Shown here: positions 3,601 through 48,085 of the stretch, piece by piece
Numbering within the stretch: position 1 is the first letter of the stretch
How the letters are laid out: each line of letters opens with the position of its first letter
NCBI GenBank assembly: GCA_035347995.1
Contig: DAOPQD010000005.1
Span: forward strand, 6,433-70,432
Length of the DNA: 64,000 bases
Source of the DNA: Anaerolineae bacterium
GTDB lineage: Bacteria > Chloroflexota > Anaerolineae > B4-G1 > SLSP01
Reading direction: 5' to 3'
Program-made: the position numbers and the translations under genes
The notes under the pieces: generated by a model
Seen by the model: the letters and a program-made list of their open reading frames with translations, nothing else
The model's database searches: none
What the model was told of the DNA's origin: nothing

Positions 3601-5055
3601 CGTGATCGAGCGGCTCAGTTCGTTGAGCAACATCAGGGTGTTCAGCTGCAGCCGCAGGTTTTCCACCAGCCGGTTGTTGGCGATGACCACCCCAATCTGC
3701 GCCGCGAACAGCTCCAGGACTTCCAGGGAGGCCCGCGTCGGCGCCCGTCCGTCCAGAGGCTCGTCCACCGACAGATAGCCGACGGCATCGCCCTGCGGGC
3801 CATACAGCGGGACCAGCAACAGGTCCTGCGGATGCCACATGCCGGGGCGGCGAGCCTCAGGCAGGGCCACCTCCACCTCAAACACGTCCAGTTCCCCACG
3901 CCAGATGTGTTGCTGTTCAGCCGGAATGTAATAGCAGTTGCCGATGCGGAATTGCTCTTGCAGCAAGCGTGCGATCTGCGACCAGGGGCGGCGCACCTGC
4001 TTGAGGCGCTCCAAATCCACCAGGGGCATCCCTGCCCCGGCGACGCGCCGCACCATCTGCCCCTCAATCACGCTGATGAGCACGATCTCATAGCCGACCG
4101 CTTCTTGTGTGGCATACGCCATGTCCAACAGGGTCTCTTCGAGGGGGCGATCGGAACGCATCGTCCGCGTGGCTTCCAACAACAAGCGCATCTGCTCGGC
4201 GCGTTCCCGCACAAAGTTGCCCCGCAGCAGTTGCTCCTGATAGCGCCGATCGTTTCCCACCGCCAGCGCCGTTTCCGCCGCCAGCCCGTCCATGAAATCA
4301 ATCGCCGCCGGATTCAACGCCTGCGGTTGGCGGCAGTGCAGCACGATGGCCGCTGCCAGCTGCCCCTCATAAAAGACGGGCGACCACAATTCAGTCTGCA
4401 TCCCGGCCTGGTATGCCGGCGTCGGGTGCAGCTCGGCGAGATTGGGAATGTAGCGAGTGACTGGCTGCCGCATGAAAGCCACCAGCGAAGGGTCGGTCTC
4501 AGCATGGGCCAGTAGCTCCTCGTAAGCGGCGGAGGTGGCCTCCGGATAGCCCTGTGCCAGCGCCAGGGTAGGGAGCTCGTCGCGCCAGAGCCAGACCATC
4601 CCCGCATCCGCGTGAGTGAACCGCCGCGCTTCTTCCAGCACCAATTGGAGAATCCGCCCCAGTTCCAGCGTGCTGGCGATCTCCTGGGTGATGCGCCGCA
4701 AGGCGGCTTCCGAGGCAACGCGCCGCGCGACTTCCTGCTCCGCCGCCTGGGCGCGCCGGGCCTGCGCTTGCCATGCCGACGCCAGCGTAGCCCCGGCACC
4801 CGCTAAAAAGGCCGCCACGGCCCAATGCAACCACAGCGTCGGCGTGCGCCACACGGCCAACACCGCCAGCGCGAATAAAATGAGGGCCGTCAGCCAGACA
4901 CGCCGTCGCCCCTGCAGGCCCCCCAACACCGCCGGCAGGATCAACAGGTACAGCCCCACGGGCAGCGCGCCGCTATACAGCAGCAGCAACGCCAGCGCGC
5001 TGCTCAGCAACACCGCGCCCCATCCAGGCTGGAAAGAAGTCAACCGCTCACGCAT
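682..5055 (-). CDS. hybrid sensor histidine kinase (TM, multiple GAF, PAS, HisKA, HATPase_c, two receiver domains)
   Basis: 1457 aa. Hydrophobic N-terminus and repeated GAF-like blocks. H-box SHELRTPMTSV; N/G boxes NLVGNAFKYT, DTGIGI, GGTGLGL. Two C-terminal receivers (VLVVEDDPEV.., VLVVDDDRDT..). Confidence 0.9.
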   Translation of the reverse strand: MRERLTSFQPGWGAVLLSSALALLLLYSGALPVGLYLLILPAVLGGLQGRRRVWLTALILFALAVLAVWRTPTLWLHWAVAAFLAGAGATLASAWQAQARRAQAAEQEVARRVASEAALRRITQEIASTLELGRILQLVLEEARRFTHADAGMVWLWRDELPTLALAQGYPEATSAAYEELLAHAETDPSLVAFMRQPVTRYIPNLAELHPTPAYQAGMQTELWSPVFYEGQLAAAIVLHCRQPQALNPAAIDFMDGLAAETALAVGNDRRYQEQLLRGNFVRERAEQMRLLLEATRTMRSDRPLEETLLDMAYATQEAVGYEIVLISVIEGQMVRRVAGAGMPLVDLERLKQVRRPWSQIARLLQEQFRIGNCYYIPAEQQHIWRGELDVFEVEVALPEARRPGMWHPQDLLLVPLYGPQGDAVGYLSVDEPLDGRAPTRASLEVLELFAAQIGVVIANNRLVENLRLQLNTLMLLNELSRSITTKLDLSLVLNTVAQAVTNLLGYDYATVYLQARGQTALTPRASSGYDLSLLGEGLQVEPGAGLVGAVVESGMPLALDDVRGEPRFTPGPLPVGSALLVPLQVAGRTVGVLSAERREAGILEPLQVATLTMLADQISVAVENAQLFEEVKNFSAELERRVEERTAELAEALNSLRTERDRSTILYEIASGLVASLDIDRVLHKTVSMLKDAVRAERATVLLLDQNTGHLQQRASVGGGKSVPPGGVRAPYKRNEGLVGWVLTNRQSAMVPDVRLDARWIPIEDDTRSVLAVPITAGDETVGVIFLHSPEVDAFDTGDQRLVEAAAVQVGHALNNAELYRLIREQAERVGSMLRTQQNEAARSQAILEGIADGVLVADARGKIILFNAAAERILTLNRAQAMGRSLSEVLGLYGDKVRGWLEQIAVWEAEPGSYQSGDFLSERLELGRQVVSMHLSPVISPIREFLGVVAAFRDITAEVEADRAKSEFVSTVSHELRTPMTSVKGYVDLLLMGATGPLTDMQVQFLNIIRNNTDRLTSLVNDLLDMSRIEGGKVELHCQPVDMAELIRQVAVTLTPKIEEKGLQIRTVLPEGLPLAYGDPDRMVQILTNLVGNAFKYTPLGGEIAIYAYVREEMFHIAVADTGIGISPEDQSRIFSRFYRVDNPLVSEAGGTGLGLAITASLVQMHGGQISVESEPGEGSIFTVTFPLAEGEATAPVGRPPAGLGANAAATVLVVEDDPEVAEMLRLTLEHEGHRVVVAASGEAALRLARQEQPDLISLDIRLPDLDGFEVLQLLKRNPDTASIPVVIVSVVFDQDRGLRLGAVDYFTKPVDEARLLQVVNRVLAGKGTVLVVDDDRDTLTLLRTALRAQGLQVRTVTRGERALRMAQEQPPSLILLDLKLPGMDGYEVLQQLKRHPATANIPVVVMTGFAEPGNGSASAMKALGATRFVTKPFSMEELGEEISRLVESADGNKE

Positions 5056-9136: not shown

Positions 9137-9918
9137 TGCAGATCCAGGAAATCCTGCACAACCTGGTTAAAATGGTCTTTTTCATCCAGCATGGGAAAAT
9201 GCCCGGAGCCTTCAAAGTAATGGATCAGCGCATGTTTGACTCCGGCCTGCAACACGTTGCCCTGATGGGGATCCACGATATTGTCCTTGACCCCATAAAC
9301 GCCCATGACCGGGATGCGCAGCTCTTGTAAGCGAGGGCGCAAATCGGTAAAGCGCAAATCGCGGATGCTATCCGAAAAAGAGTTCATCGTGGTGCTGGAT
9401 AAGTCCTTTTGAAACATCTCGTACCAGGTGCGCCAGTCGCGGGCGTAAAACCGCGAGGCGATCCGCATCCCAAAAGCGAAAGCGCGCGGGAACCGATACA
9501 GCAATCCGGCAATGCGCCGGTTACCGGCCAGTTTGAGCGGCACCGCCAGCCCTGAACCGACCACGGGGGAGCCTACCACCGCCACACGCGAGACCCGCTG
9601 CGGATACATCAACGCCAGGCTCAGCGAGACGGTCCCCCCCATCGAGTGCCCCATCACCGGCGCACGCTCCACACCCAGGCGTTCCATGAACTGATTCACC
9701 ATCTCCACATATTCGCCGACGGTGAATGCCCCGTGTTTGGCCGACTCGCCAAAGCCCCAGAAATCAAGCGCGTAGGTCTTGTACCTGGAAGCCAACAGCT
9801 GCATCGTGGGAAGCCAATAGCTCCACGAACCCAACCAGCAATGCAGCAAGATCACCGGCTTGCCGCGTCCGATGGCTTCATAGTGGACGATTCCACGATC
9901 GGTGACAATGGCTACCAT
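9133..9918 (-). CDS. alpha/beta-fold hydrolase
   Basis: 261 aa. HCWLGSW oxyanion region, nucleophile elbow GHSMGG, C-terminal GSGHFP. Paralogue of the partial gene at 1..281. Confidence 0.85.
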   Translation of the reverse strand: MVAIVTDRGIVHYEAIGRGKPVILLHCWLGSWSYWLPTMQLLASRYKTYALDFWGFGESAKHGAFTVGEYVEMVNQFMERLGVERAPVMGHSMGGTVSLSLALMYPQRVSRVAVVGSPVVGSGLAVPLKLAGNRRIAGLLYRFPRAFAFGMRIASRFYARDWRTWYEMFQKDLSSTTMNSFSDSIRDLRFTDLRPRLQELRIPVMGVYGVKDNIVDPHQGNVLQAGVKHALIHYFEGSGHFPMLDEKDHFNQVVQDFLDLQ

Positions 9919-18855: not shown

Positions 18856-18877
18856 GAAGGACCGCTGCCATCGCAAG

Positions 18878-18967
18878 CACAAAAATGTGAGTTATGAGCG
18901 GTAAGCGGAGACTGCGACAGTTCTCGACTCACGATTCACCGATCTCTATTTGCTGAGGAGGCTCTGC
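18878..18967 (+). promoter_or_regulatory. structured 5' leader module, copy 1 (GTGAGT arm .. ACTCAC-N3-TCAC arm .. CTCTATTTGCTGAGGAGG SD)
   Basis: 57/74 positions identical by hand alignment, gap-free, to the module at 34348..34421. See findings. Confidence 0.5.
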
Positions 18968-27767: not shown

Positions 27768-27829
27768 ACACAGATTTCTCCCGCTTGTACCGCCACCATG
27801 GCGAGAGGCTCCTGCAAGAATAGAGAGCC

Positions 27830-27876
27830 GTGAGTCGAGAGCCGTCACAACCTCTGCTCATGGCTCTCACGTTTTT
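27830..27876 (+). terminator. hairpin + T-run terminator built from the GTGAGTCG.GAGCCGT / GGCTCTCAC palindromic unit
   Basis: gagagcc..ggctctc stem followed by acgTTTTTAtt. The 5' arm shares GTGAGTCG-GAGCCGT with the leader module at 34348. Confidence 0.6.
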
Positions 27877-28044
27877 ATTCCCTGTGGGGTGCCGCAGGAA
27901 TATCTCAACTCCTCAAAGGATAAAAACGACCATTCCCAAAGCAATCTGCGCCGCCGTGAAACATATCCGCGTGAAAACGCGTCTTGCACAAACTGCAAAA
28001 AGTGGTAAATTGTATCGGAATACACACTCTGGCGGCGATACACC

Positions 28045-33612: not shown

Positions 33613-33918
33613 TCAAAGCTCGTGCTGATTGATGAGGCGGGTCAGCTCGTCGGCGTGCACGTAATGGGTCACGGTGATGGATTGCTGGCGCACGCCGGGA
33701 ACGCTGCCTACGGCCTGTTTGATGTCGGCTGCCAGGCTCAACGCCAGCGGGCACAGCGGCGAGGAGGGCCGAAAGCTGTAGCTCACCCTGCCGGTCAGCT
33801 CGTCAACTTCGAGATCCTCCACCAGCTGCATCCGCAGCACGTCCACCCCTGTCTCCGGGTCAATCACTTCTACCAGCTTCAACAGGATTTGTTCCCGCAG
33901 CGTCGCTTCAAGATTCAT
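33613..33918 (-). CDS. DUF59 / Fe-S assembly (SufT/MIP18-like) protein
   Basis: 101 aa. VIDPETGVDVLRMQLV..SSPLCPLA is the DUF59 pattern. Confidence 0.8.
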   Translation of the reverse strand: MNLEATLREQILLKLVEVIDPETGVDVLRMQLVEDLEVDELTGRVSYSFRPSSPLCPLALSLAADIKQAVGSVPGVRQQSITVTHYVHADELTRLINQHEL

Positions 33919-34044
33919 GGCGCTTCATCCTTTGGCTAAATTAAGGCGTGCTCTGAATGGCCTTATTTTACCCCAAGTTGCAGGAATGCCTATCTCCAAA
34001 CTTTGATTGGACTTCCGCGCCATTTGTGGTACATTGGGGACGTT

Positions 34045-34080
34045 GGGCCGCACAACTGCATGAGCGCGGCCCTCTTTTAT
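34045..34080 (+). terminator. terminator-like hairpin early in the PfkB-kinase leader (possible attenuator)
   Basis: gggccgc-14 nt-gcggccc followed by TCTTTTAT. It lies just downstream of a candidate TTGGAC-17-(TGg)TACATT promoter at 34007-34035. Confidence 0.4.
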
Positions 34081-34100
34081 GGAAATCCATGGGAGACGCC

Positions 34101-34196
34101 ATGTGCTGGCGCACATCATCCAAGGATGAAAAGGTGAGTCGTGAGCAGCGACGGCGACGGCTCACGGGTCGGCCGGGGATGGAATCCCCAGCCTGA
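34101..34196 (+). CDS. leader small ORF 1 (31 codons, MCWRTSSKDEKVSRE..), speculative
   Basis: GGGAGA lies 5 nt upstream. The first 15 codons are paralogous to sORF2, with mostly conservative changes. It runs into leader-module copy 2a. Confidence 0.25.
   Translation: MCWRTSSKDEKVSREQRRRRLTGRPGMESPA
34124..34166 (+). promoter_or_regulatory. leader module, short copy 2a (GGATGAAAAGGTGAGTCGTGAGC..GCTCACG hairpin)
   Basis: The 23-nt 5' box is identical to copy 2b. 7-bp stem cgtgagc/gctcacg with a 13-nt loop. Confidence 0.45.
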
Positions 34197-34314
34197 CAGG
34201 AGCCAAGCGCGCTGAAGCGCGCTATTTGAGGACGTAGCAGCCCGGGGGCCAGGAATTTCTGATCTGATGCGTGAAATTCGTGTTCATTCGGGGCCCATTT
34301 TCTGAGGAGTTAAC

Positions 34315-34365
34315 ATGTTCTTCCGGCACACCACCGAGGATGAAAAGGTGAGTCGTGAGCCGTGA
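34315..34365 (+). CDS. leader small ORF 2 (16 codons, MFFRHTTEDEKVSREP), speculative
   Basis: Strong SD GAGGAG 5 nt upstream. The stop codon lies inside the 5' arm of module copy 2b. Confidence 0.3.
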   Translation: MFFRHTTEDEKVSREP

Positions 34366-34427
34366 ACCGCGACTGCAACGACTCTCTACTCACGGCTCAC
34401 GGAGCTCTACTTGCTGAGGAGAAAACG
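34338..34427 (+). promoter_or_regulatory. structured 5' leader module, copy 2b (full length)
   Basis: GTGAGTCGTGAGCCGTGA..TCACGGCTCACG can form a perfect 12-bp stem. It is followed by CTCTACTTGCTGAGGAG and then the ATG. Confidence 0.5.
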
Positions 34428-35381
34428 ATGCAAATCATCGTCACCGGCTCGATTGCGTTTGATTATCTGATGTCCTTTCCGGGGCATTTCACCGATCATC
34501 TGCTCATGGAGCGCGTCGGCAAGGTCAGCCTGAGTTTTCTGGTAGACGAGATGCGCCGCGTGCGCGGCGGCTGCGCTGCCAACATCGCCTATAATCTGGC
34601 ACTGCTGGGTGAGCGTCCCGCCATGATGGCGACCGCCGGACAGGACTTCGAAGACTATCGCAGCTGGCTTGAAGACCATGGCGTGGACACCCGCCTCACC
34701 CGCACCATCCCCGACGTTTTCACGGCGTCCTTCTTCGTCAACACCGACCTGGACCAAAACCAGATCGCTACTTTCTACACCGGCGCGATGGCGTATGCCC
34801 GGGAACTCTCGTTCCACGATTTGAAACCACGCCCCGATATGGTCATCCTCTCGCCCAACGACCCCATCGCCATGGACAAGTACGCCGTGGAGTGTAAGAC
34901 GCTCGGCATTCCCTACATCTACGATCCGGGACAACAAGTGGTGCGCGTCGGCGCTGATTCACTCTGTCTGGGACTGGAGGGCGCGGACATCCTCATCCTC
35001 AACGACTACGAATTCGAATTGCTCAAGACCCGCACGGGCCTCACGGATGCGCAAATTCGCGCCGCCGTCAAGCAAGCAGTCATCATCACCCGCGGCGCGG
35101 ATGGCTCCGAAATCTGGAGCGACCGCCGCGTCACGGTGCCCGTCGTCCCTCCCCAGCAGATCGCCGATCCGACCGGCGTGGGCGATGCCTATCGCGCGGG
35201 GCTCCTCAAGGGATTGGCGCTCGGGCTTCCCTGGGAGGTCTGTGGACGCATCGGCGCGCTTGCGGCGACCTACACGCTGGAATGCGTCGGACCGCAGAGC
35301 CAGCATTACACCCTGGCGGAGTTCAAGACGCGGTACCAGGAGCATTTTGGGGAAGATACATTTACGGAGAAGATTGGGTAA
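34428..35381 (+). CDS. PfkB-family carbohydrate/nucleoside kinase (adenosine-kinase-like by context)
   Basis: GGCAANIAYNLALLG and DPTGVGDAYRAG (PfkB signatures). Immediately upstream of ahcY. Start at MQIIVTGS (SD GAGGAG). Confidence 0.85.
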   Translation: MQIIVTGSIAFDYLMSFPGHFTDHLLMERVGKVSLSFLVDEMRRVRGGCAANIAYNLALLGERPAMMATAGQDFEDYRSWLEDHGVDTRLTRTIPDVFTASFFVNTDLDQNQIATFYTGAMAYARELSFHDLKPRPDMVILSPNDPIAMDKYAVECKTLGIPYIYDPGQQVVRVGADSLCLGLEGADILILNDYEFELLKTRTGLTDAQIRAAVKQAVIITRGADGSEIWSDRRVTVPVVPPQQIADPTGVGDAYRAGLLKGLALGLPWEVCGRIGALAATYTLECVGPQSQHYTLAEFKTRYQEHFGEDTFTEKIG

Positions 35382-35449
35382 AGCATAATGCGTGATACGT
35401 AACATTCATCAAATATAAGAGATGTCATGTGTTAGCGTATACTATCAAG

Positions 35450-36789
<1,340 letters not shown>

Positions 36790-37365: not shown

Positions 37366-38046
37366 GTGACGGAGGCGCGGGCTCTATTTTCGAAGGAGAC
37401 GGCGCCAGAGTCCATTAACATTCTGGCAGTCTTCGGCGGACTCATCGTCCAGTACCTCGGCGCGGCGACCAGCGCCCTGGGATTCACGACGCTCATCTTC
37501 GCCATTCTGGAGCGGACGCTTTCCGAGGAAGATCTCACCGATCTCCAGGACGAGGAAAAATGGGATCCCCGCAAGCTGCCGCCGGTTGAGGATTCCAATC
37601 GCATCCAACCGGTGAGCATGGTCGCGGGCATCTGCTTCACCGTCCTGGCACTGTTGCTCTTCAACCTGTTTGCAGATCGGTTGGGCATCATCTACACCCA
37701 AACAGAGGGAGGATGGAAGGTCATCCCCGTGCTCAGCCCGGCAGCCATCAAAACCTTCCTGCCGCTGTGGAACCTCAGCTGGGTGCTGACGCTGGCGCTA
37801 GACGTGGCGGTCTTGCAACAACGGCGATGGAACACGACCACACGCTCGCTGGAGCTGGGGCTGAAAGGATTCACCCTCTACATCCTGGTGCGGATGTTTT
37901 CCGGCCCGGTGCTGGGGAAGCCGTTCGAGATGGAAGTGATCGAGCAAGTCCTGACGCAGGTGTATCGCTGGGCGCTGATCTTCGGCATCATCGGCACCGT
38001 CGTGGAGATCGCCCAATCCGGCTACCGGCTGATCCGCCAGCGCTGA
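37366..38046 (+). CDS. membrane protein partnered with PadR
   Basis: 226 aa, several TM segments, GTG start. Family not recognised. Confidence 0.6.
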   Translation: MTEARALFSKETAPESINILAVFGGLIVQYLGAATSALGFTTLIFAILERTLSEEDLTDLQDEEKWDPRKLPPVEDSNRIQPVSMVAGICFTVLALLLFNLFADRLGIIYTQTEGGWKVIPVLSPAAIKTFLPLWNLSWVLTLALDVAVLQQRRWNTTTRSLELGLKGFTLYILVRMFSGPVLGKPFEMEVIEQVLTQVYRWALIFGIIGTVVEIAQSGYRLIRQR

Positions 38047-47529: not shown

Positions 47530-47835
47530 CGCTCTGAAAGAAGAACAGTGGCGTGCCAGACGTCACCCTGGCGAACTTTGACTGCAGGAGTAACAACGTT
47601 ACCTTCATCTTAGCGGAGTTCATAATAATGTCAATACCCCGGACATCAATTCAAAATGCATTATTTTAACATATAACAAAATATCCCATGGCCCCGACGT
47701 CTCAAGAAGCCCGCCCGGCGCCGGGGCGACTTTCTCCGGGATGTTTCTGCGACCACAGCCGATACACCCAGCAATAGCCTTTGTAGAGGTAACTGTTCAG
47801 CCACTGACTAAAAAACGCAAGATTTCCTGGTGATC

Positions 47836-48085
47836 GCTGAAGATTGAGAATCAACTTTTGCCCCCTATCCCCTGGCCCCTTCCCCCCGCGCGCGGGGGGA
47901 AGGGGAACTTTTTTTGTGGGGTTTTGCAGGCGGGCTACGCCCGCCTGCAAAACCCCTTATTTTTTCTCCCCCTCCCCAACGGCGCAAACGCCGTTGGGGA
48001 GGGGGCAGGGGGTGGGGCAAAAGCTACAGCTTACAAAGGTTCATCCATCGCCGTCGAGCTACCTGGCGCCAGGCTGAACAGTCAC
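47836..48085 (+). repeat. modular GC-hairpin repeat, copy B (about 250 nt, carries one extra hairpin module)
   Basis: Colinear with 13459..13659. The extra perfect 17-bp hairpin at 47918-47956 is absent from copy A. The right end overlaps the stop codon of the pentapeptide gene. Confidence 0.8.

Follow-up and report, generated by a model that had tools for sequence, protein, structure and literature searches.

A probable family of gene-oriented interspersed repeats donating ribosome-binding sites, including that of the PfkB kinase gene in the kinase-ahcY leader of an Anaerolineae bacterium

Introduction

A 64-kb stretch of a contig from an Anaerolineae bacterium (DAOPQD010000005.1; this whole stretch of 64,000 nucleotides is called the window, and positions are counted from its first letter) contains a gene encoding a PfkB-family kinase (34428..35381, plus strand, ATG at 34428; Pfam PF00294, E = 2e-37), which some sources name adenosine kinase, and downstream of it ahcY, encoding S-adenosylhomocysteine (SAH) hydrolase (35530..36789, plus strand; Pfam PF05221 and PF00670). 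The leader of the kinase gene contains hairpins, two small open reading frames (mini-ORFs) and two related sequence modules, and the question which this locus raises is whether the leader is a regulatory device dedicated to the kinase-ahcY operon. A first-pass annotation, made from the letters of the window, suggested translation-coupled attenuation or the duplication of a regulatory cassette. The promoter, hairpins, mini-ORFs and modules that it listed are all present at the positions it gave. Comparison with orthologous leaders and with related loci points to another explanation, in which the repeated units are likely to belong to a modular interspersed repeat that is specific to one lineage, is oriented with genes and brings them a ribosome-binding site (RBS), and not to be a dedicated kinase-ahcY attenuator.

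Results and Discussion

Repeat units in the kinase leader and in orthologous leaders

A profile of the repeat unit was built from 35 aligned instances and the window was searched with it using nhmmer. Three plus-strand segments follow each other directly upstream of the kinase ATG: the 5' half of a unit (unit 2a, 34086..34167; nhmmer match 34086-34163, model positions 4-88, 39.6 bits), module X (34168..34294) and a full-length unit (unit 2b, 34295..34427; nhmmer match 34299-34424, model positions 3-128, 112 bits). Unit 2a consists, in order, of a Shine-Dalgarno (SD)-like GGGAGA, an ATG at 34101, a mini-hairpin ATGTGC/GCACAT (34101-34116), the A-rich GGATGAAAAGG, GTGAG heptads and a hairpin CGTGAGC..GCTCACG. 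Unit 2b starts with ATTTTCTGAGGAG, followed by an ATG at 34315, the 5' part, a core hairpin (34348-34400) and CTCTACTTGCTGAGGAG (34405-34421), and the SD of the kinase gene lies within this last element. The first-pass annotation had noticed a 23-nt block, GGATGAAAAGGTGAGTCGTGAGC, that is identical in both copies; this was confirmed, as the block occurs exactly twice in the 64 kb (34124-34146 and 34338-34360), was matched in none of 100 shuffles and is an identity far above chance. Its proposal of a duplicated cassette holds in so far as units 2a and 2b are related as members of one repeat family with copies across the genome; they are not a local duplication of an operon regulator.

The loci collected for comparison are referred to by L-numbers, and identity figures are those of the kinase protein unless stated otherwise. 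Metagenome-assembled genomes (MAGs) of Anaerolineae/Chloroflexi from digesters, for example ADurb.Bin222, encode proteins with 100% identity to the kinase. In the relatives with an identical kinase (L076-L079) the leader matches that of the window except for a 1-nt indel, and the spacer between the kinase gene and ahcY contains the unit that is found there in the window. In L070, which is 94-96% identical to the window on both flanks, window positions 34112-34401 are swapped for 454 unrelated nt, part of which is a ~290-nt repeat also present at 47788-48085 of the window, and the unit in the spacer has four heptads, not one. The first unit in the leader of L070 has AGG for ATG and a different hairpin flavour, and the second reads ATG-TGC-TAG. 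In the relatives with 88% identity, which represent two lineages (L084/L085 and L089), the FeS(-)/kinase/ahcY synteny is maintained, the promoter and the first hairpin are kept, and no unit is present in the leader or in the spacer of 43 or 79 nt. The relatives with 72% and 68% identity (L087/L088 and L093) have kept the extended -10 and the hairpin, with the SD of the kinase gene 8-12 nt further downstream, and have no unit in the spacer. An nhmmer search for the unit in the kinase leader and the kinase-ahcY spacer of the 88%, 72% and 68% relatives gave nothing at E < 0.01. These comparisons indicate that ~345 nt of the kinase leader are a lineage-specific insertion composed of unit 2a (5' half), module X and unit 2b (full). 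According to the first-pass annotation, orthologous leaders that lack the mini-ORFs and retain the hairpins would speak against attenuation; such leaders were found as far as the first hairpin is concerned, and the hairpins of the modules were lost alongside the mini-ORFs.

Module X contains two hairpins that were detected in an inverted-repeat search, GGCCGGGGATGGAATCCCCAGCC (34171-34193) and AGCGCGC-TGAA-GCGCGCT (34206-34223). About 70 nt of it are near-invariant in L067, L037 (twice), L047 and L059, and a 2a-type 5' half fused to module X is also found in L023, L037 (twice), L047 and L067. One copy has the apical loop inverted, and elsewhere the module extends to a hairpin followed by a U-run, with the copy in L067 located at 9280-9480. 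Module X had no credible Rfam match in E-value scans of 33800-34600 and of L067 9100-9700. The loci L080-L083, which are independent Logan short-read contigs, all begin inside module X (window 34281-34282), 147-148 nt ahead of the kinase ATG and ~14 nt ahead of unit 2b, which would fit assemblers breaking at these repeats.

Copies in the window and anatomy of the unit

Five copies of the unit were detected in the window by the nhmmer profile, namely 2b, 2a and copies 1, 3 and 4; relaxed patterns also gave the copies before ahcY, before the HD/HD_assoc gene and on the minus strand. Copies 1, 2a, 2b and 3 had been mentioned before, and the minus-strand copy at 27917-27805 is the fifth. Copy 1 (18863..18967, plus strand; nhmmer match 18863-18965, 91 bits) is without the 5' ATG part and precedes an HD/HD_assoc gene (dGTPase-like according to Pfam). 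Copy 3 (35418..35529, plus strand; nhmmer match 35418-35523, 72.5 bits) is an AT-rich variant with one heptad and precedes ahcY. The first-pass annotation stated that copies 1 and 3 have no upstream ATG, which is correct for copy 1 only, since copy 3 has an ATG at 35427 that opens a 'mini-ORF' of the form ATG-TGT-TAG (35427-35435). Copy 4 (27800..27917, minus strand; 75.9 bits) has ATA for ATG, lies between plus-strand genes for a hydrolase and a YkuD protein and is directed antisense into the 3' end of the hydrolase gene. Behind it lies an ORF of 117 aa that is without a Pfam match and overlaps, on the other strand, the hydrolase domain. Copy 4 appears to be an orphan unit.

The unit is ~110-135 nt long and is built in the order SD-like site and ATG, mini-hairpin, A-rich stretch, (GUGAGNN)n/(NNCUCAC)n hairpin, CUCUAUUUUCC and GAGGAG. 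The consensus of the 5' part reads (A/G)GGAG, 5-6 nt, ATG TTCCTGCGGCACACCACCG (in a second flavour ATG TGCTGGCGCACATCATCC) and ..AATGAAAATG, and that of the core reads one to four copies of GTGAGNN, an apical AGAGGCTGCRAC GRCTCTC, KA, CTCAC (GGCTCAC), TGCTCTCTATTTTCC and GAGGAG, and 5-12 nt further on lies an ATG, which starts either a real gene or the next unit. The number of heptads varies, with 1-4 GUGAGNN versus 1-3 (usually two) NNCUCAC partners. Each of its three portions, namely the 5' part, the heptads (n = 1-4) and the 3' part, can be found alone or recombined. Two side observations concern such partial or similar elements in the window. A lone 3' part of the unit (CTATTTTCGAAGGAG) is present at 37384-37398, before an ORF downstream of a PadR gene. 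Compared to this post-PadR spot, L070 has ~360 extra nt (3943-4302), including an N-terminal coding sequence that has no counterpart in the window, so that the window gene downstream of PadR may be truncated or rearranged. Furthermore, an AATGCGT-type heptad repeat with ~1-4 copies depending on the strain is located right after the kinase stop (window 35385-35405, L070 1933-1975); the kinase-ahcY spacers of L080 and L081 differ by 7 nt.

No consensus structure was obtained with RNAalifold from a MAFFT alignment, because the variation in heptad number disrupts the alignment, and single-sequence folds were therefore used. These predict for the unit a long, imperfect hairpin formed by pairing of GUGAG with CUCAC heptads. 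An H-type pseudoknot between two GUGAG and two CUCAC elements was considered and rejected, as the nested long hairpin accounts for the pairing. Folding is more favourable for the sense than for the antisense strand in 26/36 units (means of -24.6 versus -21.6 kcal/mol; Wilcoxon p = 0.0013), as would be expected of a structure at the RNA level with G-U pairs. The SD has a predicted unpaired probability of 0.42 on average, with values above 0.5 in just 14/40 units. All three reading frames are closed by stop codons in 36/40 units, with a mean of 2.9 closed frames versus 2.29 in shuffles.

Spread of the family and gene context

A strict pattern was used to scan one genome per species (185,579 species genomes). 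This yielded eight loci, all from a single Anaerolineae MAG, and 27 other loci that are apparent chance matches. A tighter pattern applied to metagenomes gave 40 loci, one of them in a contig with activated sludge in its name. The window, MAG and metagenome loci together make up 43 distinct instances, of which L063 and L074 look like chance matches. Besides the five copies in the window, ~45 further distinct copies thus come from Anaerolineae digester MAGs and from metagenomes, and they precede the start codons of housekeeping genes that are unrelated to each other. In ~42/47 distinct units a long ORF or another unit begins within a few nt of the SD of the unit. The units point in the same direction as the genes, and the SD at their 3' end serves the downstream gene. 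Units are commonly arrayed in tandem, two or three at a time, and are also joined with other recurrent modules. The units before a same-sequence protein in L044 and L052 differ by 14 nt.

Pfam confirmed the genes behind units as HD-dGTPase-like, PfkB and AhcY. When read by eye, other downstream N-termini resemble those of DUF59 FeS-assembly, DegT, GreA, MFS, FolB, glucokinase, lipoprotein, acyl-CoA carboxylase, methylmalonyl-CoA mutase, MCM and GYD proteins. The genes behind units do not belong to one metabolic pathway, which disfavours a metabolite riboswitch. The Rfam search of the whole window at gathering thresholds gave zero matches, and the E-value scans (33800-34600 at E <= 10; L067 9100-9700) gave only weak, chance-level matches to isrK, NrsZ and sR23, the single one in 33800-34600 being isrK-like. 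Literature searches on leader repeats in Anaerolineae/Chloroflexi, limited in coverage, gave nothing relevant.

Other repeats were encountered in the same loci. The interspersed repeat of ~290 nt at window 47788-48085 is abundant in G-tract and C-tract hairpins; copies with 89-93% identity are present in L039, L040, L042, L045, L059, L060 and L066, and the kinase leader of L070 holds a repeat of this type (591-878) in the opposite orientation. In two more distant Anaerolineae loci, repeat hairpins of another sequence precede pfkB or ahcY: a (GGTGGTT)n/(AACCACC)n hairpin in L091 (1411-1503) and a (TGCGTAC)n/(GTACGCA)n hairpin in L086 (1320-1560), each followed by a U-rich tract and an SD. Such an arrangement may be more widely used within the class Anaerolineae.

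The conserved promoter and 5' hairpin

Upstream of unit 2a, the plus strand carries a promoter-like site, TTGGAC-17-TACATT with an extended -10 (TGgTACATT), at 34007..34035, as read from the sequence, and a GC hairpin GGGCCGC/GCGGCCC with a 14-nt loop at 34045-34072, which is followed by the U-rich TCTTTTAT at 34073-34080. The promoter-like site, with 7/12 matches, was not called in a consensus scan of 33850-34500. The motif TTTGTGGTACATT is kept in the relatives with kinase identities of 94%, 88% (two lineages), 72% and 68%, and its distance to the GC hairpin is 9-10 nt in every relative compared. Across relatives the arms of the hairpin are conserved and the loop is variable, and in the distant relative L093 the stem has a compensatory change from C-G to U-A. 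The promoter-like site and the GC hairpin with its U-rich tract therefore appear to represent the ancestral, conserved layer of the kinase leader.

The GC hairpin had been described as terminator-like, which was not borne out, as zero terminators were called in the scan of 33850-34500. It begins ~3-4 nt past the expected transcription start. Because it lies near the transcription start, is found directly before the SD in some relatives and leaves no room for an antiterminator, the hairpin is probably the 5'-terminal stem-loop of the mRNA. Bacterial mRNAs are protected by 5' stem-loops, and the hairpin might accordingly be a protector of the mRNA end, or else a piece of the native translation-initiation region.

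Donation of a ribosome-binding site as the favoured explanation

Taken together, we consider it likely that the units are a lineage-specific and modular interspersed repeat, oriented with genes, whose 3' end becomes the RBS of the following gene or of the next tandem unit. Such a unit would be tolerated at a start codon without silencing the gene, and three steps can be proposed for this. The 5' ATG of the inserted unit would capture the resident SD; the UGA-rich heptads would then close the captured frame, with a modal ORF of 16 codons and stops in three frames; and the hairpin, U-rich tract and SD of the unit would re-create a native-like initiation region. If the units affect expression, by way of mRNA stability or of the efficiency of translation, the effect would be a general one without specificity for SAH or adenosine.

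Several points weigh against this explanation. The p-value of the folding comparison is too generous, as the tested units are related sequences and their independence is overstated. The SD is not clearly exposed in the predicted ensembles, so that the rebuilding of an open RBS lacks support from the folding model. The excess of stops in all frames is equally strong in the antisense direction, and the heptad sequence alone may cause these stops. Selection for a function, beyond tolerated insertion, could also explain why the units are strictly co-oriented and placed exactly at start codons. The number of copies per genome is extrapolated from loci that were themselves gathered through searches for the unit. 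No transposase or mobility mechanism came up, where no search aimed at transposases was made, and no target-site duplication was evident at the junctions between the window and L070.

Alternative explanations

One alternative, which we regard as unlikely, is positive selection on the unit as a domesticated translation cassette, in which the short ORF delivers ribosomes and the hairpin stabilizes or insulates the mRNA, so that expression is raised or standardized. The delivery of ribosomes by short ORFs is an established idea (PMC12548453; PMC4833913). The AGGAG columns of the mini-ORF SD are conserved at 0.78-0.89 and the SD-ATG spacing is well kept, as this reading would expect; the native leader shares the layout of hairpin, U-rich tract and SD, and L091 and L086 place different repeat hairpins with a U-rich tract and an SD before homologous genes. 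However, the stop of the modal mini-ORF is located ~60 nt upstream of the gene start, too distant for classic termination-reinitiation coupling, and few ORFs reach the SD, an example being that of L052, which stops in GCUGAGGAG. Moreover, the ATG is frequently lost and relatives run homologous genes without units. A combined version, in which a mobile repeat was co-opted as the standard initiation cassette of a large share of the housekeeping operons in one Anaerolineae lineage and a GUGAG-reading factor could co-tune these operons genome-wide, is a speculative and rather improbable extension.

It is also rather improbable that the unit is a cis-regulatory RNA of a large post-transcriptional regulon, in which an RNA-binding protein, for example one that recognizes GAG repeats at 7-nt spacing, a small ligand or a physical signal controls access to the SD in many genes at once. 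Its strict sense orientation and fixed distance to the start codon would fit such a role, as would the predicted RNA-level hairpin with G-U pairs and the partial pairing of the SD in predicted ensembles. In addition, the GUGAG heptads outnumber their CUCAC partners, so that some are left unpaired, and the proteins HutP and TRAP bind triplets at periodic spacing. On the other hand, the functions of the downstream genes are incoherent, unit presence and module content vary at 94% identity and no units are present at 88%. Some copies are truncated, orphan or antisense, no Rfam family was matched, and the copies are near-identical even in their loops, which looks like recent spread and not like old constraint.

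The attenuation proposed by the first-pass annotation concerns the mini-ORFs, which would encode leader peptides whose translation melts the hairpins and thereby attenuates transcription or translation of the PfkB kinase-ahcY operon. Mini-ORF 1 (MCWRTSSKDEKVSREQRRRRLTGRPGMESPA; 34101..34196, plus strand; 31 codons, stop at 34194-34196) is preceded by GGGAGA and mini-ORF 2 (MFFRHTTEDEKVSREP; 34315..34365, plus strand; 16 codons, TGA at 34363-34365) by GAGGAG, both with good SD spacing. The third GTGAG heptad, which is part of the 5' arm of the stable hairpin at 34348-34400, contains the TGA of mini-ORF 2, and the statement that a terminating ribosome would open this hairpin is sound; it applies to the modal form in the family, a 16-codon ORF (MFLRHTTxxENVSxEx) that ends at the UGA of the third heptad. 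As read from the sequence, GCACAU may in some copies have two alternative pairing partners, AUGUGC upstream and AUGUGAG downstream, which would also suit attenuation.

The remaining data on the mini-ORFs make attenuation very improbable. The start position in 39 distinct 5' parts is ATG in 26, AGG in 5, ACG in 3, CTG in 2 and CCG, ATA and AAG in one each, so that the start codon is lost in 13/39 copies. The A, T and G of the start codon are conserved at 0.94, 0.78 and 0.97, and the flanking columns are conserved as well as these. Among copies with an ATG the length ranges from 2 to 68 codons, lengths of 2, 8, 9, 11, 13, 31, 44, 50 and 68 occurring besides 16, and one copy without an ATG has a frame of 179 codons. 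The two-codon form ATG-TGY-TAG/TGA was found in three copies (window copy 3, L070 and L065). The peptides are variable, as illustrated by that of mini-ORF 2, MCWRTSS.. and MC-stop; there are no runs of regulatory codons, and an excess of third-position changes sought in the larger subfamily was not found, the differences from the consensus being 27/21/29 at codon positions 1/2/3. There is no sign of selection on the peptide. The replacements C/F, W/F and S/T, which had been described as conservative, arise from two nucleotide flavours of one RNA/DNA segment that are read in one frame. The caution in the first-pass annotation that the peptide may be incidental was well placed, and the mini-ORFs probably derive from the repeat consensus and are not conserved regulatory leader peptides. 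Attenuation also lacks its terminator, as no U-run terminator hairpin follows the units and the U-rich tract starts 8-10 nt past the unit hairpin, and units of the identical type precede unrelated genes. Above all, the model is largely refuted by the orthologous leaders, from which the units are missing at 88%, 72% and 68% identity and in which other modules are found at 94%. A riboswitch for S-adenosylmethionine (SAM)/SAH or for a nucleoside, suggested by the ahcY, PfkB and HD-dGTPase-like contexts, was rejected once GreA-, MFS-, FolB-, glucokinase- and lipoprotein-like contexts were seen.

Significance and comparison with known systems

For the kinase-ahcY leader the favoured explanation implies that it is neither a mini-ORF attenuator nor a tandem riboswitch, and that its sole conserved elements would be the promoter and the 5' stem-loop. 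The units would form a repeat family without a description in Rfam or in the limited literature searched, which is gene-oriented, ends exactly at start codons, carries its own RBS and turns over between near-identical genomes. This combination is uncommon among bacterial interspersed repeats. In practical terms, the units may break metagenome assemblies, they create spurious small ORFs, and they can mimic tandem riboswitches in motif screens.

Four known systems can be compared with the units. The SAH riboswitch, commonly found before ahcY, resembles the locus in its position in a 5' leader with ahcY downstream. However, the units are not tied to methyl-cycle genes, and no Rfam match to the SAH riboswitch (RF01057) or to any SAM/SAH class was obtained in the whole window or in the leader scan. 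Leader-peptide attenuators of the trp/his type share the 5' leader position and a short ORF that overlaps hairpin-forming RNA, whereas the Anaerolineae leader is without regulatory codons and without a terminator and is not conserved in orthologous leaders.

BOX elements of Streptococcus pneumoniae (boxA-boxB(n)-boxC) are similar in their composite modular build, variable number of subunits, strong predicted RNA hairpins, strain-dependent length, clustering or nesting with other repeats and spurious small ORFs. One BOX element is located within a regulatory 5' untranslated region, between two T boxes (PMC3049150). BOX elements are enriched between convergent genes and donate no RBS, in contrast to the Anaerolineae units, which are almost always in the sense orientation and end at a start codon.

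The main precedent is provided by mycobacterial interspersed repetitive units (MIRUs), which are described as inserting at start codons and as containing an internal ORF coupled to the host gene; owing to this small ORF, translation of the host gene need not be lost on insertion (PMC12548453). The coupling takes the form of a -4 overlap between the ORF and the host gene. Like MIRUs, the Anaerolineae units are short interspersed repeats that are co-oriented with flanking genes, located at start codons and often in tandem, and their copy number or presence varies between close strains (window versus L070, L044 versus L052, and the empty sites at 88% identity). They differ in that the mini-ORF stops ~60 nt upstream, without a -4 overlap, in that the unit brings its own hairpin, U-rich tract and SD, and in that the variable subunit is a 7-nt heptad in the hairpin in addition to whole units. 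The units also belong to another phylum, and the likeness is one of organization only. With this restriction, MIRUs would be the closest organizational analogue of the Anaerolineae units, with BOX elements next to them.

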